NCBI RefSeq assembly: GCF_963921235.1 | Contig: NC_086097.1 | Span: forward strand, 172,548,001 to 172,612,000 | Reading direction: 5' to 3' | Source of the DNA: Mobula hypostoma | Lineage: Eukaryota | DNA length: 64,000 bases | In this document: positions 4,812 through 62,549 of the stretch, piece after piece | Position numbering within the stretch: position 1 is the first letter of the stretch | Layout of the letters: the number at the start of each line of letters is the position of its first letter | Translations under genes and position numbers: made by a program | The notes under the pieces: model-generated | The model's database searches: none | What the model was told of the DNA's origin: nothing | What the model saw: only the letters and a program-made list of their open reading frames with translations

Positions 4812-7800
4812 TCATCTAAAGTCTGCTCGCATTGGGGTTATATATTCAATCCATTTATTCCAGATTTGATAAAATGTTTCTTTTTGAGTTCTCAGGGAGT
4901 AAGTCAACTTTTCCATTTTAAATATTTCCAAGATAATTTCGTACCAATCTTCTAATGTAGGTGGTATTGGATTTAGCCATTTTCTAGTGATTGATTTCTT
5001 ACTTGCCGCCAAGAGGGCCTGCAGCAACTTTATATCTTCCTTCTGTTCAAGGAACAATACATGCCCCAAATAGAGCGTCTCAAAGTTCAGAGGTATCTGG
5101 GACCTAAGTACCTTAACTAATGTTCTATGAATACCTTCCCAAAATAGACTTAATTTAGGGCAATCCCAGAAAATATGAAAATGATTTGCCTCCTTGGAGC
5201 CGCACCTTCTCCAACACATCACATTTGTATCTTTATATTTTTCCTGATATGGGGTCTTGAAGTATCTTATAATGTTTTTCCAACAATGTTCTCTCCAAGT
5301 CAAAGAATTAGTCGAGGACCATTGAAAGCTGCAGATTTTCCCCCAAGCCTCCTCTGAAAGCACCAACCCCGCTTCTTTCTCCCACTTCTCTTTAATATAC
5401 AGTGTATTTACATTTTTAGCATGGGAGAGTGCATTATATAGGCGAGAAACTGATTTACTAGGTATTGAACTGCAAGCCGAATTCAGAATCTTGAAAAATT
5501 CTAATTCTACTGTTGATAGGTCTGTATATCTACAACTCTGGTTAACATAGTTTCGTATTTGAAGGTACCTAAAAAAGTCATTATGTTCTAGGCCATGTTT
5601 GTCCTGCAGGATTTGGAAACTTTGTAATACTCTTTTATCTATAAATGAGAGGTAGGTTGTAAGACCTTTCTTTATCCATAGCTCAAATCTTTTATCTCCT
5701 CTGTTGGGAAGGAATTCGGTATCATATGCACACCATCTAAAGAGTTTTAACATGTTATTAATTCCACATGAATTAACCACCTTCTGCCATACTTTTAATG
5801 TAAGATTTATCCAAGCATTATTAAATTTTTCCAACTGGGCCATCAATCCTTTGTCAGCTATTGAGGCCTGAAGAGGAAAACTGTCAACTAATCCAAATTC
5901 TATTTCCTTCCATCTAGCCTTATATTCCCTATTACACCAATATAACAGAGGGGTTATCTGTGAGGCATAAAAATAATTTCTCAGGCAAGGAAGAACCATA
6001 CCTCCTCCTTCCTTCCCTAACTGTAAGGTGTTATATCGAATTCTAGGTTTCCTTCCTTGCCAAATGAAGCGGGAAATCCATTTGTCCCATTCCCTGAATT
6101 GATTATCATCCACCTCCACTGGTAAAGTACGGAAAAGATATAATAACCGAGGAAGAATATTCATTTTTATAGTATTTATCCTTGAATTTAAAATTAAAAA
6201 GGGGATAAGATTCCATCTATGCATATCTGCTTTTATCTCTGAGATAATGGCCCATAATTTACCTGTGACAGTGTTGAAAGATCCTTCGGCAGGGTTATTC
6301 CTAAATATTTTAATGATTTAGCTTCCCACTTAAGATCGTATGTATCCTGCAATTTTTTGGATGGTGTATAATTTAGGGACATAACCTGCGTTTTCTTTAC
6401 ATTTATTTTATAACCTGATATTTTCCCAAAGTCATCCAACAGTGTAAACAATCCTATAAATGATTTTTCTGGTTCACTCAGATAGACCAAAACATCATCT
6501 GCGAATAACGCCACTTTCTGTTCAATCCCTGCCACCTTGATACCTTTTACGATTTCGCTCTGTCTTATTAGTTGGGCAAGTGGTTCAATATATAGCGCAA
6601 AAAGGAGAGGAGAAATTGGGCATCCCTGTCTAATGCCTCTCTCTAAAATGAAGGAGTCAGAGAGGTCCCCATTTATCTTAATTCGGGCTGTAGGGCTGTC
6701 ATATAGAGTCTGAATTACTTTAATAAACCTTTCTTGAAAGCCGAATCTTCCTAACACTCTGTATAGGAATGCCCAACTAACCGAATCAAAAGCTTTTTCA
6801 GCGTCCAATCCTACTACCATTGTCTCTGTCTCGTTCTTATTAACCTGTTCTAATATGTGCAGAGTTCTCCTTATGTTGTCCTGTGTTTGTCTTTGTTGAA
6901 TAAATCCAGTCTGGTCTAAATGGATTAGGCCAGGTAAGAGCTTTTCCAATCTGCGCGCTAATATAGATGTAAATAGTTTGTAATCTAAATTAAGAACACT
7001 AATTGGCCGATAATTGCCACATTCTAGTTTATCTTTACCCTCTTTAGGAATAACTGAAATAATCGCTTCTCTCCAGGAAGGTGGAGTTTCTCCTCTCTGC
7101 AAGATCCAATTAAAGGTGTTAAGTAGTAATGGGGCTAACTGTGTCTTCAGGGACTTGTACCACTCTGAGGTAAACCCATCAGAACCCGGGGACTTTCCAG
7201 CCTTTAACCTAGAGATGGCCACGTTCAGTTCTTTGACAGTTACTGGTTCTAATAAACTTTCATTTTGTAAATCTGTAAGTTTAGGTAGATCTAAAAAATT
7301 CAATACACTGTCTATATAGGGCTCAATGGGGGCCCGGGGTTGGGAGTACAGCTCTCGATAATATGTTTCAAAACTCTCTTGAATTTTCCCTATTGTACTC
7401 TCCACAAGCTTTGTCTTTGGATTCTTTATTTTATGAATTGTATTGTCTGCTTGTTGTTTTCGTAATTTATATGCTAATAATCTAGCTGATTTACCTCCTA
7501 CTTCATAATTCTTTTGTCTCAGGTAAAGAAAATTTCTTTGAGTTTCCAACGTATAAGTATCATCAATTTCACTTTGCAATTTCCTAATTTCCTGTTTTCG
7601 ATTTGAGTTACTTTTGTTGCTATCTACAACTTGAAGTTGTTTTAATTTTCTTTGAAGGTCTGCTAATTTTTGTGCATTGATTTTTTTCATGTGAGTAGTA
7701 ATGGAAATAATTTTCCCTCTCAGTACAGCTTTCAATGTATCCCATAAAATCACTGGTGATGTTTCTCCCGTGTCATTAAGGTCTAGATATTCTTTGATTT

Positions 7801-8600
7801 CTCCCCTTAATCTCTCCATTACTTTCGGGTTATTGAGTATATGTGAGTTTAGCCTCCATAGTGTTTTCCTAATTTTCCTTTCCAGGATTAGAGACATAGA
7901 GACTGGGCTATGATCCGACAGATCAATTGTTGCAATATTACAGTTTTTTATCCTGAGTCTATCTGTATTAAAGATAAAAGAAATAGTCTATCCTTGAATA
8001 GGCTGAATGAGGGAAAGAGTAATATGTATAATCTTTACTAGTAGGGTGTAATTCCCTCCAGACATCTATAATTCCCAACTCCTCCATCAATGAATTCACT
8101 TTCCGAGTCAGAAGTTTATTCTGAGTAACTATTCTTGAAGAATCTAATATAGGATTTAATCTAATATTAAAATCCCCTCCACAAATTACTACCCCTCGAG
8201 AACTGACCATTAGGTCAAAAATGTGTCTATAAAATGACCATTCACTACCTGGAGGAGCATAAACATTCAGCAATGTTATTTCTGTACCTTCTATTCTTCC
8301 TGTGATTTTTACAAACCGTCCTTCTTTGACTCTAGTCTCTGAAATATGTTCATAATTAAGAGTACTTGATATTAAAGTAGCTACCCCTCTTTTGTGACTC
8401 AATTTATATGATGAATAAAATACATGCTTAAAGCCCATTCTTTTTAATTTTCCATGTTCAGATTGGCTCATATGTGTTTCCTGGAGGAAAGCTATTTGTG
8501 CCCTCTCTTTTTTCAATTTAGACATAATCTTATTTCTTTTAATTGGATTCAAAACCCCATTAACATTATAGGAAATTATTTTTACCAATTCAGTTTGCAT
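4812..8600 (-). pseudogene. L1 ORF2 (APE endonuclease plus reverse transcriptase), two single-base frameshifts
   Basis: EN motifs SYNVNG, LQETH, GDFN, SRIDY, SDH. RT motifs NYRPISVLN, DAEKAFD, RQGCPISP, FADD, KYLG. One extra base near 7976-7979 and one missing base near 6245 join the three ORFs. Confidence 0.95.
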
Positions 8601-8962
8601 TTTTCTCTAGTAGAGAAAAAGCACTCTCCTTTTCTAACCAAACAGTAAGCAATCCCTTCTCAACAGTAAACCAAGACATATAACCACACCCTAGACATTT
8701 CTGAACGTATAACATTTGAAAATTTTTCCCAACTTCCCACAGTGAGGCCTGAGCACCGACCCGCCTCAGTTCAGAGGGATAACCTGTATCTTCACCCTGT
8801 GTTAGAGGGCCCTCAGCAGTTTGAATAATCATAGAGAACTTTCTCCTATTTATGTCTTGACCATATTGCTATCATTCAAGTTATTCCGCCTAGTTTATTT
8901 TCAGTTACCAGTTTTCATTTTACTTTTAAGTCCGATTTACTCTTTTCAGTCATTTCTCTTAA

Positions 8963-9949
8963 TTAATCTGTATTCTCTGTACATTCGCGTCTGAATATTT
9001 GCAGCTTTTCCTTGTAGTTTGACACTCTGGTTCGAGTGGAGCGTCCTCACCCCACTAACTGCCACGACTTCTGCCGAATCCTCTCCAGTAGCAACTCCGG
9101 TTGGATGATAACTTTAATAGGTAGTCCCCGGTCCGCCAGGTCCAACGTTGCCTCCTCCACCGTAGCGTAAGTTTTTGTCCCTTCGTCGTAAAAGACTCTC
9201 AGCTGAGCTGGATACAGGGTCTGGAATCTGATGTTGTTTTCCTTCAGGACCCTCCGTGTTTCCATATATTCCTTCCGTCTGGCAAGAATCCCCGGTGCGT
9301 AGTCGTGGTCTAAACTGATTTTGCAGTTGTTCCACATGAAACCTTTCTTTTGCCATGCTCTTTTAAGCACCTCTTCCTTCGTTCTGTAACTGAGAAATCT
9401 GACCAGAATCGATCTGGGCTAGGCGCCTGCCGGAGGCTGTGGTGTCAACGCGCGGTGAGCCCTTTCTATCTGTCGGTCTTTTGCGGCCGGTATATCAAGG
9501 TTCTCTCTAAGCAGCTTCTCCACGAAAGGAATCATCAATCCGGGTTTACCTTCGGTTCCTTCGGGAACTCCGTAGATCCTCACATTTTCCCTTCTCGAGC
9601 GGCCTTCTTGATCTATTAGTTTCCACTGGAGCTGGTCTTGTAGCTTCAGCATTTCTGCTATCACTTCCTCGGCGTTTTGTAGCTTCTCTTCAATTCCAAC
9701 AATCCTCGCTTCGGCTTCATCTATCCGCGAGTTAGTTTTTACTATTTCTCCTTTAATATCTTCCAGCTGTTTGCTGTTATCTTGTCGGAACTCGCGAATC
9801 TCTCCGAGAATCAAAGACAGAGTCACCGATTCCCCCTCATTATCTCCGTCCTGGCTTGCCGTGGGGGAGCTAGGCCCGTCGCCTTGCTGCATCTCTTTAT
9901 GTTTATCAGCCTTCGAAGTGGACTTTTTATTCTTGTTCTTAGACATCAT
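8963..9949 (-). pseudogene. L1 ORF1 (coiled coil plus RRM/CTD, Transposase_22-like), two in-frame stops
   Basis: EGRSRRENVRIYGVPE, IERAHR and TLYPAQLRV motifs. ORFs 9419-9949 and 9047-9370 are in the same frame (TAG at 9419-9421). Past the TGA at 9047-9049 the frame reads GRSTRTRVSNYKEKLQIFRRECTENTD to a TAA at 8963-8965. Confidence 0.9.
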
Positions 9950-11091
9950 CCTTGCCCCTTTTATTAATATAGTTATGCAATATTAAGTATTTGTCTAAAT
10001 TCGATTTTGGGGCAGTTTACCTTCTTTTTTGTCGAGAGACCTTTTCCTTACGCCGCCATTCCCTTGATGACCCGCGGACAATCCGCACCTCTGATGTTTG
10101 AACCTTCTCGCCATTTAGATAATAGTCTGCACTATTATTCCTTTTACCAAAACGCATTGTCATACATTTCCCAACATTGTATTCCATCTGCCACTTTTTT
10201 GCCCATTCTTCCAACTTGGCTAAGTCCTGCTGTAATCACATTACTTTCTCAGCACTACCTACCCTTGCACCTATCTTTGTATCATCAGCAAACTTTCCTA
10301 CAAAGCCATCAATTCCATTACCGAAATCATTGACAAACAATGTGAAAAGTAGCAGTCCCGACACTGACCACTAGTCACCAGCAGCCAAGCAGAAAAGGCC
10401 CCTTTTATTTACACTTGCTACCTCATGCCTGTCAGCCATTCCTCTATCCATGCCAGTATCTTTCCTGTAACACCATACGATTTTATCTTGTTAAAAAGCC
10501 TCATGTGTGGCACCTCATCAAATGACTTCTGGAAATCCAAGTAAATGACATCCGCTGCCTCTCCTTTGTCCATGCTGCTTGTTACTTCCTTGAAGAACTC
10601 GTAACAGAATTGTCAGGCAATGTTTCCCTTTACAGAAACTATGCTGAATTTGACTTACTTTATCATTTGTCTCCAAGTACCCCGAAACCTCATGCTTAAC
10701 AGTAGACTCCAACACTTTCCCAATAACTGAGGTTAGGTTAACTGACCTTTAATTCTTTTCTTTTGCCTTCCTCCCTTCTTAAAGAGTGGAGTGACATTTG
10801 CAATCTTCGGGACAATGCCAGAATCAAGTGATTCTTGAAAAATTATGACCAATGTATCCGTTAACTCTTCACTAACCTCTCTCCAGACTTTGGGATGTAG
10901 TCCATCCAGTCCAGGTGACCTATCCACCTTAAGACCTTTCAGTTTGTCTAACACTTCTTCCCTTGTAATGGCAATGGCACTCACTCCTGCTCCCTGACAC
11001 TCACGGTCCTCTGGAACACGGCTAGTGCCTTCCACAGGGAAGACATACGTAAAGTATACATTAAAGTACACTTCTTTTTACTCTTTATATA

Positions 11092-12437: not shown

Positions 12438-12745
12438 ACATCTCAACCTGGTCCCTTCAAAATTTCACTTTGAAGGATTCCCACTCATCAAATACATCTT
12501 TGCCAGAAAACATCCTGTCCCAATTCACTCTTGCCAGATCCTTTCTGATACCATCAAAATTGGTCTTTCTCCAATTTAGAATCTCAATCTGAGATTCTGG
12601 GGACCAGGTTGAGATTCTAAGTTGGAGAAAGACCAATTTTGATGGTATCAGAAAGGATCTGGCAACAGTGAATTGGGACAGGTTGTTTTCTGGCAAAGAT
12701 ATACTTAATAAGTGGGAATCCTTCAAAGTGAAATTTTCAGAGTAC
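12438..12745. repeat. Fold-back inverted duplication inside CR1
   Basis: About 12457-12590 is the reverse complement of about 12606-12740 (aaatttcactttgaaggattcccact / agtgggaatccttcaaagtgaaattt), with a short spacer. Confidence 0.9.
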
Positions 12746-13189: not shown

Positions 13190-13400
13190 GCAGCACAAAC
13201 AGAATGCTGGTGGAACTCTGCAGATCAGGCAGCTTCTAAGAAAAGTGTACAGTTGACATGTTGGCCCAAAACCCTTTGACAGTCCTGCCGAAGGATTTTG
13301 GCCCGACACATCAATTGTACATTTTTCCTAGATGCTGCCTGGCCTGCTGAGTTCCTCCAGTATTTTGCGTGTGTTGCTTGGATTTCCAGCATCTACAGAC
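13190..13400. mobile_element. Head-to-head pair of Penelope pLTR-derived units (decayed hammerhead motifs)
   Basis: atgctggtggaactc...ggcagc is mirrored by gatgctgcctggcctgctgagttcctccag; junction at about 13280. Confidence 0.75.
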
Positions 13401-16400
13401 TGGACTTCAATAACTCTAAGTACAGCAGGTCTACTGCATCAGCGAGCTGCTCATTTTTCGGAGTAGCCGGCCAGGATATCGTAGGAGCTGGCCGTTCAGA
13501 GAAGGGGAGGCTATCCATCGGGCTGATAGGCCGTGGGAGGAGCTGGATTAGATTTGGAGAAGAAACTGTCCTAGGTGCTGTTGCCTGCTACTCAAAGGCG
13601 CCAGTGTTGGTGCGCAAAGGTGGCGTGCAGAGAAACCATGATGCCTTGGATGCTTTTTTTCCAATCACAAAACACTGTTAGACATTGATTGCCACAGGCC
13701 TATTTCCCTTGTTTGGTAGTGAGACAGGAGGCGAGGCAGTATCTGTGTTGGAGGCAGATGCAGAAATTACGGGGGCCCCTAGCAGAGATATTTAAATCAT
13801 CCTCAGCAACAGGTGAGGTACCAGAGGTTGGAAGATAGCTAATGTTGGTCTGCTGTTTAACAAAGGCTCTAAGAATAATAAGGAAATTATGGGCTGGTGA
13901 GCCTGACATCAGTGGTGGGAAAGTAATTGGAAGGTATTCTAAGGGACCGGATATATGAATATTTGGATAGACAGGGACTGGTTAGGAATAGTCAGCTTGG
14001 ATTTGTGTGTGGTAGGTCATGTCTATCCAAACTTATGCAGTTTTTTGAGGAAGCTACCAGGAAAGTTGATGAAGCCAAGGCAACGGATGTTGCCTACATG
14101 GAACTCAGCAAGGCATTTGACACAGTCCCACATGAGAGATTGGTCAAGAAGGTCCAGTTACTTGGCATTCAAGATGAGGTAATAAATTGGATTAGACTTT
14201 GGCTTTGCGGGAGAAGCCAGATAGTTGTTGCAGACAGTTGCCTCTGTGGCTGAAGGCTTGGGACTAATGGAGTGCCACAAGGATTGATACTGGTTCCGTT
14301 TTTGTTTGTGATCCATATTAAAGACCTGAATGTTGGTGTAATTAACTGAATCAGCATATTTGCTGAAAACACCAAGAATGGGGTTGTAAAGGACAGTGAG
14401 GAAGAATATCAGAGCTTGCAATGGAATCTGGACCAGCTAGAAAAATGGGCTGAAAAATGGCAGATGGACTTTAACATAGACAGGTGTGAGGTGTTGCACT
14501 TTGGGAAGGCCAACCAGGGTAGGTCTTATACAGTGAGCGGGAGGTCACTGAGGAATGCAGTAGAACATAAGGATCTGTGAATACAGGCCCATAATTTATT
14601 GAAAGGAGCATCAGAGGTAGATAGGGTTGGAAAGAAGGCATTTGACACGTTGGCTTTCATAGATTGAAGTACAGAGTACAGGTGATGGGATGTTACGTTG
14701 AAGTTGTATAAGGCAATGGCAAAGCCTAATGTGTGCAGTTTTGGTCAGCTACCTACAGGAATTATGTAAATAAGGTTGAAAGAGCGCAGAGAAAATTTAC
14801 AAGGATGTTCCCCTGACTGGAGGACCGGAGTTATAAGGAAAGCTTGAAATGGTTAGAACTTTATTCCCTGGGAAGTAGAAAATTGAGAAGGGGTTTGATA
14901 GTTTACAAAATTATGAGGGGTATAGATAGGGTCAATGCAAGCAGGTTTTTTTCCACTGAGGTTGAGTGAGACTTGAACTAGAGGTCATGGGTTAAGGGTA
15001 AAAGGTGAAATGTTTAAGGAGAACCTGAGAAGAAACTTCACTCAGAGGGTGATGAGAGTGTTGAATGTGCTGCTAGTGCAAGTGGGGTTGTGATGTTGAT
15101 TTCAACTTTTAAGAGAAGTTTCGACAGGTACATGGATGGGAGGAGTATGAAAGGCCAGGTGCAGGTCGATGTGACTGGGCAGCTTAAGTGGTTCGACATG
15201 GACTGGATGGGCCAAATGGCCTGTTTCTGTGCTGTACTTTTCTATGGCTCTATGACTCTAACAGGGTTTCCTTCCTCCACCATTGATGCTGCTCTCACCT
15301 GCATCTTCTCCATTTCCCAGACATCCACTCTCACAGCATCTTCCCACCGCCTAAACAGGGATAGAGTTCCTCTTGTCCTCACCTACCACCCAAAGAGCCT
15401 CTGCATCCAACATATCATTCTCCACAACTTCTGCTATCTTTAATGGGATCCTATCACCAAACACATCTTTTCCTCCCCTTAACTCTCCGCTTTCCGCAGG
15501 GATTGCTCCTTGCATGATTCCCTTGTCCAATCATCCCTCCCCACTAAGCTCCCTCCTGGCACATATCTCTGCAAGCAACAGAAATGTTATACCTGCCCAT
15601 TCACCTCCTCCCTTACCTCCACTCAGGACCCCAAACAGTCCTTCCAGGTGAGATAACACTTCACCTGCGAAGCTTTTGGGATCACCTATAATATCCAGTG
15701 CTTCCGATGCAGCCTCCTCTACACTGGTGAGACCCAATGTAAATTGGGGGACAGTTTTGTTGAGTAGAATTTCCCGGTGGCCAACTATTTTAATTCCTAT
15801 CCCCATTCCTGTTCTGACATGTTGGTTCATAGCCTCCTGTTTTGCCATAATAAGGCCACCCTCAGACCAGAGGAGCAACAACATTTATTTCATCTATGTG
15901 GTTTCCAACCTGATGGTAAAACATTGATTTCTCCTTCCAGTAATTTGTTTTCCTCCCTCTTCTCTCTTCTATTCCTTATTGTGACCTCCTGTGTCTTCTC
16001 CTCACCTGCCTATCACTTCCTTCCCCCAGTACCCCTGCTTCTTCTCTTTCTCCCATGCTCCACTCTCCTCTCCTAGTAGATTCTTTCTGCTCCAGTCCTT
16101 GACCTTTCCCACCCACCTGACTTCACCTAGCACCTTATGGCTAGTTCTCCTTCCCCCCAACCCCACTCCCCACTCCCACCTTTTAACTCTGGTGTCCTGC
16201 CCCTTTCTTTCCAGATCTCAGATAGAATCTAGGCCCAAAGCATCAATTGTTTTTTTCATTTTGATAGATGCTTCCCAACCTGCTGAATCCTTCCAGCATT
16301 CTGATTCCCAGCATCTGCAAAATCTCTTGTGTTACTCTTCATTCAGTGTTATATTTATGTTGAATATGTATAAAGCATTGTCTCATAAGCATGAGATTCT

Positions 16401-31976: not shown

Positions 31977-33032
31977 TGAATGTGAACACAGGAAGCTTCA
32001 AGTAATGATCTGCTAAACCTGAGACCATTCTCAAACAAATAGCCATTTGTTATGTAAAGGGCATGGACTCTGAACTGATCCTTGCTCTGCGACAATCTAA
32101 TCAGACCAACATACCTAAGGCTACTTCCACACTACACTGGATAATTTTGAAAACAAAGCTTTTTCTCTTCGTTTTGACCTTCCGTCCACACTGAAATGGC
32201 GTTTTCAGCCCCCGAAAACGGAGATTTTCAGAAACAGTCTCCAGAGTGAATAAATCTGAAAACGCCTAATATCCGTTGCAGTGTGTACGGGGTAACCGGA
32301 GCTTTTTAAAACCGCTGTCGTGACGTGCCGGAACAGATGGCGACAGTGCAGCATTTCATTGTTTTCTTATTATTATTACTACTACTACTTTATTGTCGCC
32401 GAAGAATTGATACTAGAGCATACAATCATCACAGCGGTATTTGATTCTGCGCTTCGCAGAACCTAACAATTTCAGAACAGACAGCAACAAGACTAAAGCC
32501 AGAAGAGTTAGAAATGTACTCACCAAATACTTTGACCCATAGCTTACTGAATAAATAAGTATACTCACTTTGCCCTGTTTTCTGTCCTAGCTTGTATGAA
32601 GGTGGTTTACCTATTTATGCCAGTCCTTCTCTGACAATAGATGTGTAACAGCCTAATGTAACATTGTATGGAAATACAGGTGTCCCCCGCTTTTCAAACG
32701 TTCGCTTTACGAAACTTCACTGTTACGAAAGACCTACATTAGTACGCTGTTTTTGCTTTCAGAAGGTGTTTTCACTGTTACGAAAAAAAAATTCAGCGTG
32801 TGAAAAAAATCAGCGCATGATAAAAGGCAGAGCGCACCCCGAGCAGCCGCTCTCCCCCGGATTTGGAACGGCATTCTCACCGGCATTGCTGAAACACGTG
32901 CCTATGAGCAGCCGTTTGCAAGATGAGTTCTAAGGTATCGGAAAAGCCTGAAAGAGCTCGTAAGGGTGTTACACTTAGGGTAAAACTAGACATAATTAAG
33001 CGTTTTGATCGTGGTGAACAAAGTAAGGACAA

Positions 33033-33135
33033 GCAACATACATCAAGGTTGCTGGTGAACGCAGCAGGCCAAGCAGCATCTGTAGGAAAAGGTGCAGTCG
33101 ACGTTTCAGGCCGAGACCCTTCATCAGGACTATAT
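33033..33135 (-). mobile_element. 103-bp Penelope pLTR-derived insert
   Basis: Perfect 10-bp TSD gtaaggacaa at 33023-33032 and 33136-33145, interrupting the Tigger transposase remnant. Confidence 0.85.
33096..33131 (-). ncRNA. Minimal type I hammerhead ribozyme motif
   Basis: Minus strand reads AGUC-CUGAUGA-AGG gucucgg CCU-GAAA-C-GUC-GACU: both core motifs, stem I AGUC/GACU, 3-bp stem II, GUC cleavage triplet and a palindromic ACGU stem III, as known for Penelope minimal hammerheads. Confidence 0.75.
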
Positions 33136-33560
33136 GTAAGGACAATGTGAGTTTGGCTTGTGGAAGCTGATGAACATGAAGAGGTTTTGGCATCCCATCA
33201 CCAAGAACTGATAGATGAAGAGCTGATGCATTTGGAAGAAAAAAGGATAACAATCGAAACCGAATGAGTAATGATAAAGTACGACTTTAATTTTGAAAGG
33301 GTACGTCGGTTTAGGAGATATTTGCAGGATGGTTTGAGTCCTTATTAAAGAACTGTGTGATAGAAAAATGCGTGAGGCTCAGCAGTCAAGCAAGCCTTCC
33401 ACATCAGCCACAGCAGTTGACGAACCTCGACCTTCGACATCGAGGCGGGCAGAGATAGAAGATGAGCTGCCTGCTCTAATGGAAAGAGACGACGAGATGA
33501 CACCCCAGCGTCCCACCACCCCAACTCCCAGGCCATGGACAGATACCGATTCGCGGAAAA

Positions 33561-33793
33561 TGCAACGGTAGCCGGGACGCACACAGCACTTCTTTAAGAA
33601 AAGCCGAAAGAAACATGCTAATTAATTAGGTGCCGCCGACACATAATTGTCGGCCCAGATCAGAGATGACACAATTGGAAATCGGCACTGATCTGGGCCG
33701 ACAATTACGTGTCGGGCAGCACCTAATTAATTAGCTAGTTTATTTCGGCTTATTTCTTAAAGATGTGCTGTGTGCCTCCCAGCTACCGCTGGA
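33561..33793. repeat. Long imperfect palindrome inside the Tigger element
   Basis: About 100-bp arms (33561-33663 and 33688-33793), e.g. gctaattaattaggtgc...taattgtcggcccagatcag / ctgatctgggccgacaatta...gcacctaattaattagc. Confidence 0.9.
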
Positions 33794-43914: not shown

Positions 43915-44166
43915 AGTGGTGAGATTCCTCACCTGCCCCTCCTTCTTCTCTTTCTCCTATGCTCCATTCTCCTGTCCTATCATATTCCTTTTTCTCCAGC
44001 CCTTTATCTTGCCCACCCACCTTGTTACACAGATCACCTTCTAGCTAATCCCGCTTCCCCTCCCTCCACCTTTTTGATTCTGACACTTTCCCCCTTCCTT
44101 TTCAGCCCTGAAGAAGGATCTCAGCCCAAAATATCAACTGTTTGTTCATTTCCATCGATGCTGCCT
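43915..44166 (+). mobile_element. Penelope pLTR fragment with decayed hammerhead
   Basis: cagccctgaagaaggatctcagcccaaaatatcaactg follows a pyrimidine-rich tract homologous to 16000-16280. Confidence 0.7.
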
Positions 44167-46104: not shown

Positions 46105-47461
46105 TGACCATATGATCTCTGTCTTGGAGGCCGACGTCAGAAGATTTTTCAGGTGAGTGTTCCCTCACAAGATGTCTGGCCCCAATGGTATACCAGCTAT
46201 GGTTCTGAAAACCTATGCCAATCAACTGGTGGGTGTGTTCAAAGACATTTTCAAACTTTTATTGCTACAGTTGGAAATTTCCACTTGCTTCAAAATGACA
46301 ACAATCATACCAATGCCCAAGCCAGGCCTGAACAAAGAGTTACAGAACCTCGGCCTCAAAGATGAAAAAATCTGCGGACGCTGGAAATCCAAGCCACACA
46401 CACAGAATGCTAGAGGAACTCAGCTGGCCAGGCAGCATCTACAGAAAAGAATAAACAGTCGGCACTTCGGGGCAAGACCCTTCATCAGGCCTCTGTACTT
46501 CACTCTGCAACTGAATTCTTGACTTCCTCACTGGAAGACCATAGACTGTGTGGATTGGAAATAACACCTCCGTTTTGCTGTTAATCAATACTGGTGCATT
46601 TCAAGGATGTGTGCTTAGCCCACTGCTCTACTCTCTGTACACCCATGACTGTGCGGCTAGCCACAGCTCAAATCCCACCTATAAATTTGCTATCTATTAT
46701 TGGCAAACCACACAAAATGCTGGAGGAACTCAGCAGGCCAGGCAGCATCTATGTATAGTCGATGTTTTGGGACGAAACCCTTCAGCAGAACTGGAGAAAA
46801 AGAAACTGAGTAGATTTGAAAGGTGGGGGGAGGGGAGAGAGAAATGCCAGGCGATAGGTGAAACTTGGAGAGGGAGGGAACTTTTTCTTCCATCAGTTTT
46901 TCCCATCACTGCAAGATGTTTGAACTTCTCTTTCCTCAGTACCTGTCCCAGAAATTCCAGTTCCATTTCCTGATTGATGATATCAACTCTCTTCTTATTT
47001 TGGCTTTTCACAACACTTATTCATTTGTCACGCTGTTGCTCTGGGGCCACTGCACAGGATCGAAATAAGCTGCCAAAAGCTGTAAAATCAGTCAGCACCA
47101 TCATGGGCACTAGCCTCCCCAGCATCCAGGACATCTTCAAGGAGCGATGCCTTAGCAAGGTGGCATCCATCATTAAGGACCTCCATCTCCCAGGACATGC
47201 CCTCTTTTCATTTCTACCATCTGGGAGGAGATACAGGAGCCAAAAGGCACACGGTCAACAATTCAGGAATAGCTTCTTCCCCTTTGCCATCAGATTTTTG
47301 AATGAACATTGAACCCATAAACACTTTATTTCATTTAACATTTTAATATATATACTTCTTACTATAACTTACACTTATTATTATGCATTGCCATGTACTG
47401 CTCCCACATAACATCAAATTTCACAACATATGTCAATGATATTAAACCTGATTCTGATTCT
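46105..47461 (+). mobile_element. Rex/Babar-type LINE, internally deleted, with Penelope-derived inserts
   Basis: [30 protein letters not shown]; (ctgatt)n terminus; inserts at 46358-46487 and about 46704-46878. Confidence 0.75.
46358..46487 (-). mobile_element. 130-bp Penelope pLTR-derived insert with mutated hammerhead
   Basis: TSD ggcctc at 46352-46357 and 46488-46493. Minus strand cctgatgaagggtcttgccccgaagtgccgactg (GAAA and GUC mutated). Confidence 0.75.
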
Positions 47462-48656: not shown

Positions 48657-48870
48657 GCAACACACACAAAATCCTGGAGGAACTCGACAGCTCAGGGAGC
48701 ATCTATGGAAAAAGTTAAACAGTTGATATTTTAGGTCGAGATCCTTCATCAATCCTAATGAAAAGTCTCAGCCCAAAACGTCAGCTGGTTACTCTTTTCC
48801 ACTGAGTTCCTCCAACGTTTTGTGTGCGTTGCTTGAATTTCCAGTATCTGCAGAATTTCTCGTGTCTGTG
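48657..48870. mobile_element. Palindromic head-to-head Penelope-derived insert (214 bp)
   Basis: Perfect 15-bp TSD ccatcaatactcatg at 48642-48656 and 48871-48885; two inverted units joined at about 48752, at the 5' edge of decayed hammerhead motifs. Confidence 0.85.
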
Positions 48871-55147: not shown

Positions 55148-58100
55148 GAAGAAGCAGATGAAGAGACAGCATGTCCCTACAACATGTTTGCAGTGGAAAC
55201 ATTTGAGGAACCACCTGAACCATATTATGCCACAGTCACCGTCAGGGGAAAGGACAGTAAGTTTGAGATTGATACAGAGGCTACTGCATAGGTCATTAGT
55301 GAGGAGACCTACAGGAGGACATGGGGGTCCAACCTGCCTCCCATTAGACCATCAAAGCTCAAACTTAGGACCTATACGGGCAGCCCATACCTCATTTAGG
55401 GATGTCATATTTGGACATTTCAGCCAGGGGTCAGAAGGCTGAAGTCAGTCTAGTGATAGCTAAGGGCACGGGGCCCAGTCTTTTGGTTCCACGATTGGCT
55501 TCGCAAAATCCAGCTCAACTGGCATGAAATTAAGTTTGCACATACGACGGAGGACATTCTGCAGTGGTACAGTGACGTTTTCGGGACGAGCTGGGAACAC
55601 TGATGGGTGTGACAGTGAAACTCCATGTCAACCCTCAGGCCACACCATGTTTTTTTAAGCGCAGGTCAGTGCCCTATGCCATGAAAGGCAAAGTCGAGGA
55701 GGAGGTGGAACGTTTACAGAGGCTGGGCATTATTGAGCCCATCCAGTTTTCAAGGTGGGCAGCTCCCATTGTTCCAGTTCTGAAGGCAGACAACACTGTG
55801 AGGATATGTGGGAATGATAAGCTTACGGTGAATCAGATCTCTAGGCTGGAGGAGTACCCATTGCCACAGGTGGATGACCTGTTTGCGACCCTGTCAGGGG
55901 ATAAGCTGTTCACAAAGCTGGACATGAGCCATGCCTACTAACAGCTGCTGCTCGATGAGGATTCAAAGGAGTACATCACAATTAATACGCACAATGGATT
56001 ATTCAAGTACAATCACCTGGTATTTGGAGTGGCGTCCAGCCCTGCCATTCTCCAAAGGACAATGGGCACTTTGCTGTAGGGGATTCCGCACATAGCAGTG
56101 TACTTTGATGATATTTTGATCATGAGGGCTACAGAGGTGGAGCATCTGGCTAATTTAGAACGGGTGCTGAAGAGGCTCTCAAATGCAGGGCTGCAGTTGA
56201 AATGCAGAAAATGTGTGTCCCTGGCATCGAGTGTGACTTACCTGGGACACAAGATCACCGCTGAGGGGCTTTGCCCTGTGGAGGACAAAGTGAGAGCTAT
56301 TAAGGAAGCCCAAGCCCTAAGACCATCACGGAACTCAGATTATTTTTGGACATGGTGAATTACTATGGCAAGTTTCTTCCTGAATTCTCCAGGGTTTTGA
56401 CCCTACTGTATAGGCTGTTACACAATGACACTAAGTGGCAATGGGGTGAAGAGCAGGAGAAAGCTTTCAAGGAAGTGAAAGAACTCCTCCACTCAGCGAT
56501 GCTGCTTGTTCACTATGACCCAGACAAGGAGATCACCCTTGCATGCGATGCCTCACCCTATGGATTTGGGCAGTTCACTCACATGTAATGGAGGACCGTT
56601 CAGAGAAGCCTATTGGTTTTGCTTCACGTACCCTGACAGCTGCTGAGAAGGGATATTCACAGCTAGACAAAGGAGGTCTGGCCATTGTTTTTGCGGTCAA
56701 ACGCTTTCATCAGTACCTTTATGGATGCGTATTTACAATTTATACGGACCGTAAACCACTGATGAGCCTGTTCAGTGAGACTAGATGCATCCCACCGCTA
56801 GCCTCAGCCAGGATACAGCGCTGGGCTCTTACATTGTCAGCCTACCGGTGCACTATAGTGTACAGAGCGGGTGGGGATAATGCAAACGCCAATGCACTGA
56901 GTTGACTACCTTTATCTGAGACACCTGTTACTACATATGTGCCTCCAGAGACAGTGTTTTCATTGGACAGGCTGTCAGAGACGCCTGTAAAGGCGACCCA
57001 GATCAGGCAGTGGACAGAGAGGGACCCAGTCCTGTCCCAAGTCAAGACTTTTCTTTTACAAGGTTGGTCCAGAGTCATGGAAGGAGAGGAACTGAGGCCT
57101 TATGCCAAAAGAAAGACAGAACTCAGCCTGCAGGATGGCCGCATTTTCTGGGGGGGGGGGGCGAGGGTCATCGTGCCTCCCCCTGGCCGTTCACAGATTG
57201 TGGAGGAAATTCATAAGACTCACCCAGGAGTGTCTTGAATGAAAAGCCTTGCAAGATCCTACGTTTGGTGGCCAAGAATGGATCAGGATTTGGAGAACAA
57301 GGTAAAATCATGCACGCAATGTCAGGCTAATAGAATATGCTACCACCAGCTCCTTTGTATCCATGGGAGTGGCCAGACCACCCCTGGTGTAGGCTACATT
57401 TGGACTTTGCTGGCCCTTTTATGGGGCAGATATTTCTTGTAATGGTAGATGCGCATTCTAAATGGATCAAAGCTCATATCATGAGCGCCATCACAGCCCC
57501 CTCAACCACAGACAAACTCAGGCAAGTGTTTGCAGTCCACGGGTTGCCTGACACTCTGGTCACTGATAAAGGCCTGACGTTCACCAGTGAACTGTTCAGT
57601 GAGTTCATGCAGCAGAATGGCATTCATCACATTCGGGTGGCCCCTTTCCACCCGAGCTCCAATGGTTTGGCTGAGCGGGCTGTTCAAACAGTGAAGGAAA
57701 GCCTGAAGCGGATGACATGGGACTCTCTTAGCATTCGGCTTTCACGTTTCCTGTTTAAGTACCACCTCACGCCACAGACTACGACTGCCCGCACTCCAGC
57801 AGAGATGGTTATGGGGCGTAGGCCCAAGTCAAGATTGGACCTGTTGCACCTGGACATGAAGACAAAAGTGAAGAGAAAGCAGGGAAAGCAGAAGGAAGGA
57901 CATGGTCAACATGCGCAAGAGAGGCAGTTAAAACCGGATGACAATGTCTATGTGAGAAACAATCAGCAATGGCTGCCTGGGGTTATTCTTAAGCGGAGTA
58001 GTCCCGTCTCTTATGTTGTTAAGCTGACTGATGGGCATGTTTTCTGCAGACATCAGGACCATGTGCGCCTGTGTCATGATACTGGCTCAGAGGCAGACAG

Positions 58101-58359
58101 TTCCATAGAGTTTCCATTTGTGAGACAGACTATGGTAGAAGCATGTCCACCAGTGACTTTGCCAGAGGGTGTGACGCTGGCAGAGGGGTTGGGGTCCCCT
58201 GCAGAGGATGGACATTCTCACGCAGACACACAGACCCCTCTCATGCCCCCAAAACCAGACCCACCCAAAACACCATTATCAGTGGTGCCTGCTGGGTTAC
58301 CGGGGGTAGTGCGCAGATCACAACACACTCGTAAACCTCCTGACAGACTGAATCTTTGA
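55148..58359 (+). pseudogene. Gypsy pol (protease, RT, RNase H, integrase), multiple stops and frameshifts
   Basis: FEIDTEA (decayed DTGA), WAAPIVPV, LDMSHAY, YFDD, CDASPYG, ASRTLT, H..H/CTQC zinc finger, LHLDFAGPF, LVTDKG, SNGLAERAV. Confidence 0.92.
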
Positions 58360-58877: not shown

Positions 58878-59115
58878 ACACAGAGATTCTGCTGATGCTA
58901 GATATCTTGAGCAAAACGCACAAAATGCTGCAGGAACTCAGCAAGTCAAGCAGCATCTATGGAGGGGAATAAACAGTCGATGTTTTGGGTCGAAACCCTT
59001 CAGCCAGACTGGAAAGTGAGGGGGCAGAAACCAGATTAAGCAGGTGGGGGAGGAGAAGGTGTACAAGCTGGCAGGGACCTGGTGAGTGGGAAAGTGGATG
59101 ACTGGGGCAGGACAG
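58878..59115 (-). mobile_element. Penelope pLTR fragment with decayed hammerhead
   Basis: acaaaatgctgcaggaactcagc...acagtcgatgttttgggtcgaaacccttcagccagactg, homologous to 33033-33135. Confidence 0.75.
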
Positions 59116-60703: not shown

Positions 60704-61085
60704 TGGAAGATGTGGAAAGAGAAAAAGGGCTGAAGAAGAAGGAATCTTTAAAGACAGGATGGAAAAAGGGAGGAAGGGAGGAGGGAAAACAGAGGGTGAT
60801 GATGGGAAGATGGGAAGATGAAAAGAAGAGAAGGTGTGAAAGGGTAACTGGAATGGGGAATGGAAAACAAGAGAAGGTTGGAGGGGGAGAAATTAGCAGA
60901 AGTTAGAGGAATCAATGTTCATGTTATCATATTGGAGGCTACCAGGCAGACAATGAAGTATTGTTGCTCCAACCTAAGTATGGCCTCATCATGGCAGTAA
61001 AAGGGGGCCATGGACAGATGTGCCAGAATGGGAAGTCAAGTTGAAACAGGTAGTCACTTGGAAATCCTGCCTTTTGCAGCAGACA
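60704..61085 (-). mobile_element. Penelope-like remnant (endonuclease end plus pLTR start)
   Basis: Reverse complement matches 15770-16080 (gaggccatacttaggttggagcaacaatacttcatt...gtagcctccaa). Confidence 0.6.
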
Positions 61086-62549
61086 GAATGAGTCATTTTA
61101 TTTCCAGGGAAGCAACACAGTCTGGAACGAAACTTGATACAAAATCTTACAGTGAAGCCTTGTAACATACAGCGCAGTTTTCTAAAAAAAAGAATTCATC
61201 AGTCACAGGCAAGAGAATAATGGTGCATTCTCATGCACCAGGAATGTCTGGATGTTCAGCTATGGCTTTACAGAAACAAACATTGTACTAAGAAAAAAAG
61301 TCATAAATTATCTTTCACCTTGAATTTAGCTGACTAGATATTTTCACGTCAAAAGTGCAATGTTTTGAATACATACCGGTTGGATTAATAACCTCTTAAA
61401 ACATTATCCCCTGCTTTGCTCCCAAACATTATGATATATTAGTTCTTAATGTCTTGCCATAATCTATTCCCTTTTCCAGATGGAAATAATTTTCTCCCAA
61501 TATTTTTTATAAAATTTGCCCTGTCCTCCACTTGCCAACAGAGCATTTCCTGGAATGCATTAACATTTCAATTCCTGTTTGCATTAGTCTCTCAAAGCCC
61601 ACAAGATCAAATCTATAAAGGATCAAAAATAAATACATCGCTTCTCAGCACAACTGCAATCCAGTGAATGGTTTTTAATAGTGTTTGCTCCATTTCCCCA
61701 GAGAGGGTTCAAACTTCGGGGGATATCATATGCAGAAGTGATGGTAAAGTGATGAATTACAGGTTTCCAATCAAACAAACCCAAATATTACACTGACATA
61801 TTTTTGACATGGACCACAGCACAGAGAAGGGGGAGCTGCTTCACTAATCTCAATGAAGAATGACTTTTCTACAGTCAAATATGACTTGCAATTTGTGCAC
61901 AGCATTTAAATAGACCATTTTGCGCAACTGATCTATGTTTCATCCCCACTCCTATCATGGATAAAATGGTAAATTGGTTTTTATCATCACATGCACGAAG
62001 GTACAGTGAAAAGCTTTGTTTTGCTTGCTATCCATACAGATTATTTCATCACAACCGTATATTGAGGCAGTACAAGAGAAAAGCAATAACAGAATGCAGA
62101 ACGAAGTATTCAGAGCAGGCAGACAATAAGGTGCAAGGGTATGACAAGGTAGGTTGTGAGGTCAAGAGTCCACTTTTTCATATAGAGGACAGTTCAATAG
62201 TCTTATAAAAGCCGTCCTTGAGCCTGATGCTCTGTGTTTTCAGGCTTTTGCATTGCCAGGAATATGTTGATCAGGTGACTGTATGACAAGTATCCTGAGG
62301 TCTACTACTTTGAGTTAGTGATACGAGTTTGATTCCTACCACAATGGTTGAGAAATTAACTTTGAATAAATCAAAACATCTGCTATAAAATGCTGATGAA
62401 ATTGTTATACAGACTAATGCCCTGAGGAGAAAGAAATCTGGTACAGTATTTCATTCTGTCTGACCTAAATGCAATCTACAGCAATGAAGCTGACCCATTA
62501 AAAAGGCCCAGCAAGCCATCCAGTCCAAGGGCAAATAGGGATGATGATA

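Follow-up and report, generated by a model that had tools for sequence, protein, structure and literature searches.

An old DNA transposon of Mobula hypostoma carries a 103-bp insert that is most probably a fairly young insertion of a Penelope-like element (PLE), namely a clipped pLTR end that bears a single minimal hammerhead and was made from the PLE's own RNA, and to this reading we would assign a probability of roughly 0.78. On this reading it is an insertion of a known kind, a dead-end passenger and not a replicon. The evidence comes from the 64,000-nucleotide stretch of DNA around it (hereafter the window) and from contigs of four runs, of which X1 and X3 are DNA by guess, X9 is RNA by guess and X15 is of unassigned kind.

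The insertion itself is well delimited. Within the window the 10-mer GTAAGGACAA is present only at 33023 and 33136, with no copy on the other strand, and the 103 bp between its two copies (33033-33135) hold an element that reads on the minus strand. The corresponding empty site is visible in other copies of the host transposon, which skip 113 bases from 33022 to 33136 with ten letters fitting either side, in three contigs of X1 and six of X3 among the matches listed; a shifted equivalent of this skip is found in X1, X15 and X9, again among the matches listed. This empty site contains a single GTAAGGACAA, and the target-site duplication (TSD) is therefore genuine. The 3' end of its left copy would have provided the primer for reverse transcription. 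At the 3' end of the insert the junction can be placed only to within 3 nt, since TTG starts both the TSD, read on the minus strand, and the element's own continuation; the ATAT preceding helix I at the opposite end is probably mostly non-templated (Table 1).

The host is a multi-copy remnant that we take to be Tigger/pogo-like, its frame from 32923 scoring 21.3 bits against the CENP-B N-terminal domain at a cut-off of 21.2. A 229-bp inverted-repeat (MITE-like) piece at 33563-33791 lies beside or inside the same transposon, and farther away the window contains a long inverted repeat (12459-12737, LINE-like, with ~90% arms and microRNA-model matches below gathering score), a nearly complete L1-like element broken by stops (4812-9982, minus) and a Gypsy-like pol region, likewise broken by stops (55576-58359, plus), the last two labelled from their translations. 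Summed depth over the insert unit exceeds that over the host transposon by a factor of 8-10 in X1, X3 and X15 and of 22 in X9. Such depth is no copy number, but the hammerhead pLTR-end family is plainly very abundant.

Table 1. Positions in the window of the insert, its parts, its host and the related copies.
Feature	Position	Strand	Basis or remark
Host: multi-copy DNA-transposon remnant, CENP-B N-terminal domain from 32923	32677..33550	+	Pfam, contig joints; right end provisional
TSD, left copy (GTAAGGACAA)	33023..33032	+	repeat search, empty-site joints
103-bp insert, read as hammerhead-bearing Penelope-like pLTR end without the optional tail	33033..33135	-	
TSD, right copy (GTAAGGACAA)	33136..33145	+	repeat search, empty-site joints
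ATAT preceding helix I	33132..33135	-	not host sequence; does not resemble the C/T-rich stretch upstream in extended copies
Helix I, 5' arm (AGUC)	33128..33131	-	
Core CUGAUGA	33121..33127	-	
Bulged A and helix II (GGGU/GCCU, loop CUCG), 13 nt	33108..33120	-	11.1 is U at 33108
Core GAAA-C-GUC, palindromic ACGU (33101-33104) replacing helix III	33100..33107	-	
Predicted cut site	between 33100 and 33099	-	
Helix I, 3' arm (GACU)	33096..33099	-	
63 nt up to TTGC, where tail-less copies share their 3' end	33033..33095	-	
Decayed PLE: thumb, CX2-5CxxC linker, GIY-YIG region, C/T-rich 3' region, ending in unit copy ~16214-16335	15261..16335	+	profile, protein comparison, motifs
Head-to-head inverted pair meeting at helix I with a CAG/CTG overlap; tail on the right arm, none on the left	13190..13377		
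Second inverted pair, same CAG/CTG junction, 15-bp TSD (CCATCAATACTCATG)	48657..48868		
Copy with ~180 nt of upstream pLTR	44104..44166	+	
Older solo copy starting at helix I, then tail	46393..46492	-	
Tail-less copy with ~90 nt of upstream pLTR	46703..46792	-	
Tailed copy with ~120 nt of upstream pLTR	58911..59010	-	

Read on the minus strand, the insert runs ATAT, AGUC, CUGAUGA, A-GGGU-CUCG-GCCU, GAAA-C-GUC, GACU, and then a further 63 nt. It thus combines the core CUGANGA/GAAA/UH with a palindromic 15.2-16.2, an extra base between positions 9 and 10.1 and a short helix I, and has no helix III. A minimal-hammerhead descriptor matched once in the window, and only 1 of 200 shuffled windows gave any match. 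An earlier, sequence-only reading of this DNA had proposed a 103-bp insert with a perfect 10-bp TSD, a complete minimal type I hammerhead within it, and the sole intact core of the window. The exact 10-mer pair and the empty-site joints in other host copies bear out the first of these, and the descriptor, having matched core, ACGU palindrome without helix III and short helix I, bears out the second; the third holds among the nine aligned copies with the reservation that the conserved G10.1-C11.1 pair is a G-U in the insert. The reservation arises from the register of helix II, which with a bulged A comes to -6.0 kcal/mol against -4.6 for the register of the earlier reader. In the bulged-A register position 11.1 is U in the insert and C in seven of the eight other aligned copies; the conserved pair is therefore a G-U wobble in this copy, whereas the family retains it. 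The hammerhead fold has a probability of ~0.01 in a 36-mer and of ~0.08 per stem pair (stem I) in the 103-mer, the insert folds no better than its shuffles (z +1.1), and the 103-nt monomer is predicted to misfold. A search of the whole window against Rfam returned 15 matches at E<=1, none of them a hammerhead and all below gathering score. The hammerhead core also includes an AUG, 25 nt before the predicted cut site. A second pyrimidine tract ending in YAG (33063-33089, minus) is followed in most copies by an ATG ~25 nt behind the cut site, possibly an acceptor or a start codon.

The origin of the unit emerges from its relatives in the window. An nhmmer profile built from six unit copies was searched against the 64 kb, which contain 12 copies including the insert, the 11 others decayed. 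One of these, at ~16214-16335, stands directly behind a decayed PLE coding region (15261-15930), and the two together form an older relative of the insert's parent. Read with X at its four stops, the coding remnant has matches of 51-66% identity in five out of 284 candidate proteins, every one of them from a ray (Mobula, Hypanus); on a reading of their motifs these five proteins carry reverse-transcriptase and GIY-YIG-type motifs. Pfam matched no family on the decayed piece, and its domain names rest on motifs. The linker of the remnant reads CKQQKCYTC and fits CX2-5CxxC, a motif found between RT and EN in Neptune-type elements (PMC8557442; this and the other publications cited were available to us in part), and this linker motif points to a Neptune-type EN+ PLE as the probable parent, with Nematis as a formal alternative. 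Five of the 12 copies, one of them weakly, extend upstream past helix I into a common C/T-rich sequence, for >950, ~180, 120, 90 and weakly 60-110 nt, and among the matches listed, loose ends past helix I most often start, in each of the four runs, with GGAAAGG, the complement of the C/T tract. Coding remnant, upstream extensions and GGAAAGG loose ends therefore mark the unit as the terminal end of a PLE pLTR; judged from sequence, it is the pLTR end of the autonomous PLE itself, the coding link passing through the older-subfamily copy at 16214. A second PLE coding remnant (60883-61087, minus) has its hammerhead end replaced by other repeat sequence.

At 68-74% identity to all six window copies compared, the insert falls in a subfamily distinct from theirs and probably younger, and it differs from most aligned run contigs at 33072 and 33089. 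Its distinct 3' sequence recurs, at 88% and 91% identity, within in-frame cassettes of two Mobula gene models, the only two returned by a protein search with the insert's open frame. The cassettes occupy residues 150-182 in one model and 175-207 in the other, one of the two being a STARD3NL isoform, and are probably cases of predicted exonisation; since their borders may be splice joints, the gene models do not map insertion ends. Pattern scans of viral and metagenome contigs for the unit gave no match, and literature searches, which took in two supplement files of PMC4209133, found no description of this family in sharks or rays.

The 3' end of the insert is shared with several of these relatives. 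Nine 3' ends are printed, of which four fall exactly after TGC (33033, 13190, 46703 and 48657), one a base earlier, and four continue into a tail, 35-40 nt long where present; the family thus shows an optional 30-40 bp tail, with 4/9 copies tailed versus 5/9 tail-less. Among the matches listed, X1 and X3 also have loose ends at 33030 that consist of tail sequence. A PLE of Anolis has two internal start sites for reverse transcription, ~111-118 nt into an ORF starting in the hammerhead, together with an optional 30-40 bp tail (PMC11167929), and by analogy the 3' end of the insert would match a fixed, tail-less start point of PLE reverse transcription. Target and template share 3 nt here (CAA/UUG); at the other three exact tail-less ends they share 0 or 1 nt, so this match is not required.

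The two inverted pairs likewise conform to PLE habit, each having one tailed and one tail-less arm. Their form suggests that two copies of equal length, one primed from each strand, were annealed to each other, and inverted, 5'-truncated partners are a standard PLE form (PMC8557442); frequent 5' truncation and inverted 5'-truncated partners are both seen among the window copies.

Because the cut site of a type I motif follows the entire core, any core-bearing copy derives from RNA uncut at that site. Such RNA is what one would expect: a single minimal motif showed no cleavage and dimers were cleaved poorly, and most genomic minimal motifs are single and have been ascribed to truncated PLEs (PMC4209133). 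For the Anolis PLE, insertion was normal when the hammerhead was mutated, the template was predominantly uncleaved RNA, and the RNA-seq described contained no reads beginning or ending at the cut (PMC11167929). By the same token, plain uncleaved RNA would suffice to explain the 5' part kept in the insert, and circular or multimeric RNA would be unneeded; a unit cut from a multimer or circle should, moreover, start at GACU and not at helix I.

The insertion may thus be pictured as follows. The PLE endonuclease would have cut the strands of the old DNA transposon 10 bp apart, a distance given by the observed TSD. Reverse transcriptase would then have begun at a fixed internal site after TTGC, before the optional 35-40 nt tail, as modelled on the Anolis element and perhaps aided by the 3-nt CAA/UUG match. 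Copying would have continued through the hammerhead on uncut RNA, as published assays lead one to expect of a lone minimal motif, and stopped at the front edge of helix I, where the product may have been joined with ~3 extra bases. The most likely cause of this end point would be that many templates start there, whether by transcription start or by splice-acceptor-like processing.

That the edge of helix I is a recurrent end point is suggested, weakly and on a small sample, by the other copies. Six of the 12 copies start within 4 nt of helix I, which reduces to four of ten insertion events, namely the insert, the copy at 46492 and the inverted pairs 13190-13377 and 48657-48868. Directly at this edge, four extended copies (16214, 44104, 46792 and 59010) have a pyrimidine tract followed by AG, which in sequence resembles a 3' splice site. 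Among the listed loose ends, agreement beyond helix I is low (0.38-0.49), fitting either many unique flanks or a variable purine tract; since the element part of the reference runs out there, loose ends at 33129-33131 do not tell truncated copies from ones that run on. The preferred, though unproven, explanation is that many templates begin at the helix I edge, so that the enzyme would run off ~100 or 135 nt from its start sites. Two other explanations were considered for the end point. A cDNA fold-back stop at helix I received no support (z from -1.8 to +1.1 over five copies, +0.1 for the insert), and stalling at the hairpin was ranked low, since a reverse transcriptase that stalls at a hairpin is expected to stop at the 3' foot of the stem and not at its 5' edge. 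It is possible, although we would wager against it, that the ~100-nt (tail-less) and ~135-nt (tailed) units have a template starting at helix I and constitute a discrete class, made up either of strong-stop-like run-off copies, single or head-to-head, from a defined 5' end of PLE RNA, or of a self-propagating hammerhead SINE. If true, this would mean that the Penelope insertion cycle is linked to the edge of the hammerhead and not to the site where it cuts.

The alternative that survives best, unlikely as it seems to us, is an independent ~100-nt non-autonomous family, SINE-like or retrozyme-like, that arose from the pLTR end, has its own transcription, possibly passes through dimers or circles, and uses PLE proteins in trans. 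The four of ten events starting at helix I would suit it, as would the low loose-end agreement there, which allows many copies to start at this point, and the presence of the insert's distinct 3' sequence in cassettes of two ray gene models. A recent study describes retrozyme families as short as 51 bp and monomer-rich families, derives retrozymes from pLTRs and counts solo monomers among them (bioRxiv 10.64898/2026.07.22.740005). A single head-to-tail joint of the unit, in X3 among the joints listed, runs from 33132 to 33032 with an 11-letter spacer and may be counted in favour of this family too; its depth of 54.5 is about that of a single locus, versus millions for the unit, and no abundant head-to-tail joint occurs among the joints listed. 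This joint is a possible seed of a retrozyme-like dimer; one short go-back joint is found in X1 among the joints listed. Both ends of the insert, however, coincide with landmarks of the parent, and at the 3' end tail-less and tailed forms alternate as they do in PLE insertions; GACU is where a monomer released from a multimer would have started, and the ribozyme is minimal with a weakened helix II. Nor does the locus have the tandem arrangement of a retrozyme, whose definition combines circular RNA with an array of units in which two hammerheads or more occur (PMC7229834; bioRxiv 10.64898/2026.07.22.740005). No tandem copy of the unit was found at the insert locus, and hence no tandem repeats with at least two hammerheads; in place of a canonical type I hammerhead with a small helix III and loop-loop contact there is a minimal form without an Rfam match; and the 10-bp TSD does exceed 4 bp, but this trait is shared by PLE insertions. 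The sequence-only reading had favoured a separate, non-autonomous and retrozyme-like unit, mobilized by Penelope machinery from an uncleaved, multimeric or circular RNA. Penelope machinery stands, given a Penelope-type minimal hammerhead in a pLTR end behind a PLE coding remnant, and so does a template uncut at GUC; the multimer or circle loses its ground with no tandem at the locus and published templates of uncleaved RNA that suffice, and the separate unit gives way to the pLTR end of an autonomous PLE, lacking as it does a tandem, a canonical ribozyme and an abundant head-to-tail joint among those listed.

Somewhat less probable again is plain random 5' truncation of a PLE, under which the stop at helix I would reflect chance or detection bias. 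Other copies do end in scattered places, inside the 3' segment or ~60-110, 90, 120, 180 and >950 nt upstream, and the search profile was derived from the unit itself. If truncation were random and mean lengths were 100-400 nt, the clustering would have a corrected p of 0.012-0.0004 when the insert is counted. When it is left out, three of nine events still fall in the same 10-nt window, with a corrected p of 0.094 for the shortest mean, a value compatible with chance, but 0.034 and 0.007 for means of 200 and 400; these p values without the insert include a 10-fold window correction. The identical junction of the two inverted pairs also argues against random ends. Within the window, then, the 5' ends do not seem to form the smooth truncation series that the earlier proposal would have had to yield to, and 4/10 events at the front edge of helix I look like a recurring size class. 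As for the notion that no retro-insertion took place and that a chance repeat, an assembly artefact or a recombination patch was mistaken for one, the insert junctions are bridged by none of the contigs listed in the four runs, but an exact 10-bp duplication, empty-site joints and ends that coincide with family landmarks leave it a negligible probability.

Taken singly, the PLE insertion at 33033-33135 is ordinary, one of very many Penelope end fragments. It is useful as a sample, since what hammerheads do for PLEs has yet to be settled (PMC8557442) and TSD-bounded copies of this kind allow insertion starts to be counted at helix I, at the cut site and elsewhere; such a count would probe whether the template is shaped by self-cleavage in vivo.

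Among known systems, the animal non-LTR retrozymes (PMC7229834; bioRxiv 10.64898/2026.07.22.740005) resemble the insert in being non-coding, in their type I hammerhead, in a TSD above 4 bp and in their kinship to PLE pLTRs. They are tandem, however, with units of 150-450 bp (PMC7229834) and a mean of 363 bp in the one chondrichthyan (bioRxiv 10.64898/2026.07.22.740005), whereas the insert is a solo 103-bp piece with a minimal motif. Penelope of Drosophila virilis (PMC2377424) offers a parallel at the 5' side, since its intron runs up to the 5' edge of helix I, the point at which the four extended window copies have their C/T tract and AG; it also has inverted ends and a 34-bp repeat, and its transcription starts 46 bp before the 75-bp intron, ~120 nt upstream of helix I.

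Also comparable are the min-HHRs of metazoan PLEs (PMC4209133), which like the insert lack helix III and have a palindromic 15.2-16.2, a helix I of 4 bp and an extra base at 9/10.1, and which likewise reside in pLTRs, are mostly single in the genome and form opposite-strand pairs. No shark or skate entry occurs in the two supplement files of that work that were searched. Helix II has 4 bp in the insert versus 7-8 bp in the schistosome min-HHR, and the highly conserved G10.1-C11.1 pair is G-U in the insert. The Poseidon element of Anolis, PAc (PMC11167929), differs in type from the insert's family with its Neptune-type zinc-finger motif in the linker, in a primer described as non-homologous where the insert has 3 nt in common with its template, and in that the cluster of 5' ends at helix I seen among the window copies is not part of the PAc description in the portion available. 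Even so, it shares with the insert's family two start sites and an optional tail of 30-40 bp a little over 100 nt behind the hammerhead, its core AUG precedes the cut by 26 nt where the insert has 25, and an uncleaved RNA template, established for PAc, is the reading that we propose for the insert as well.
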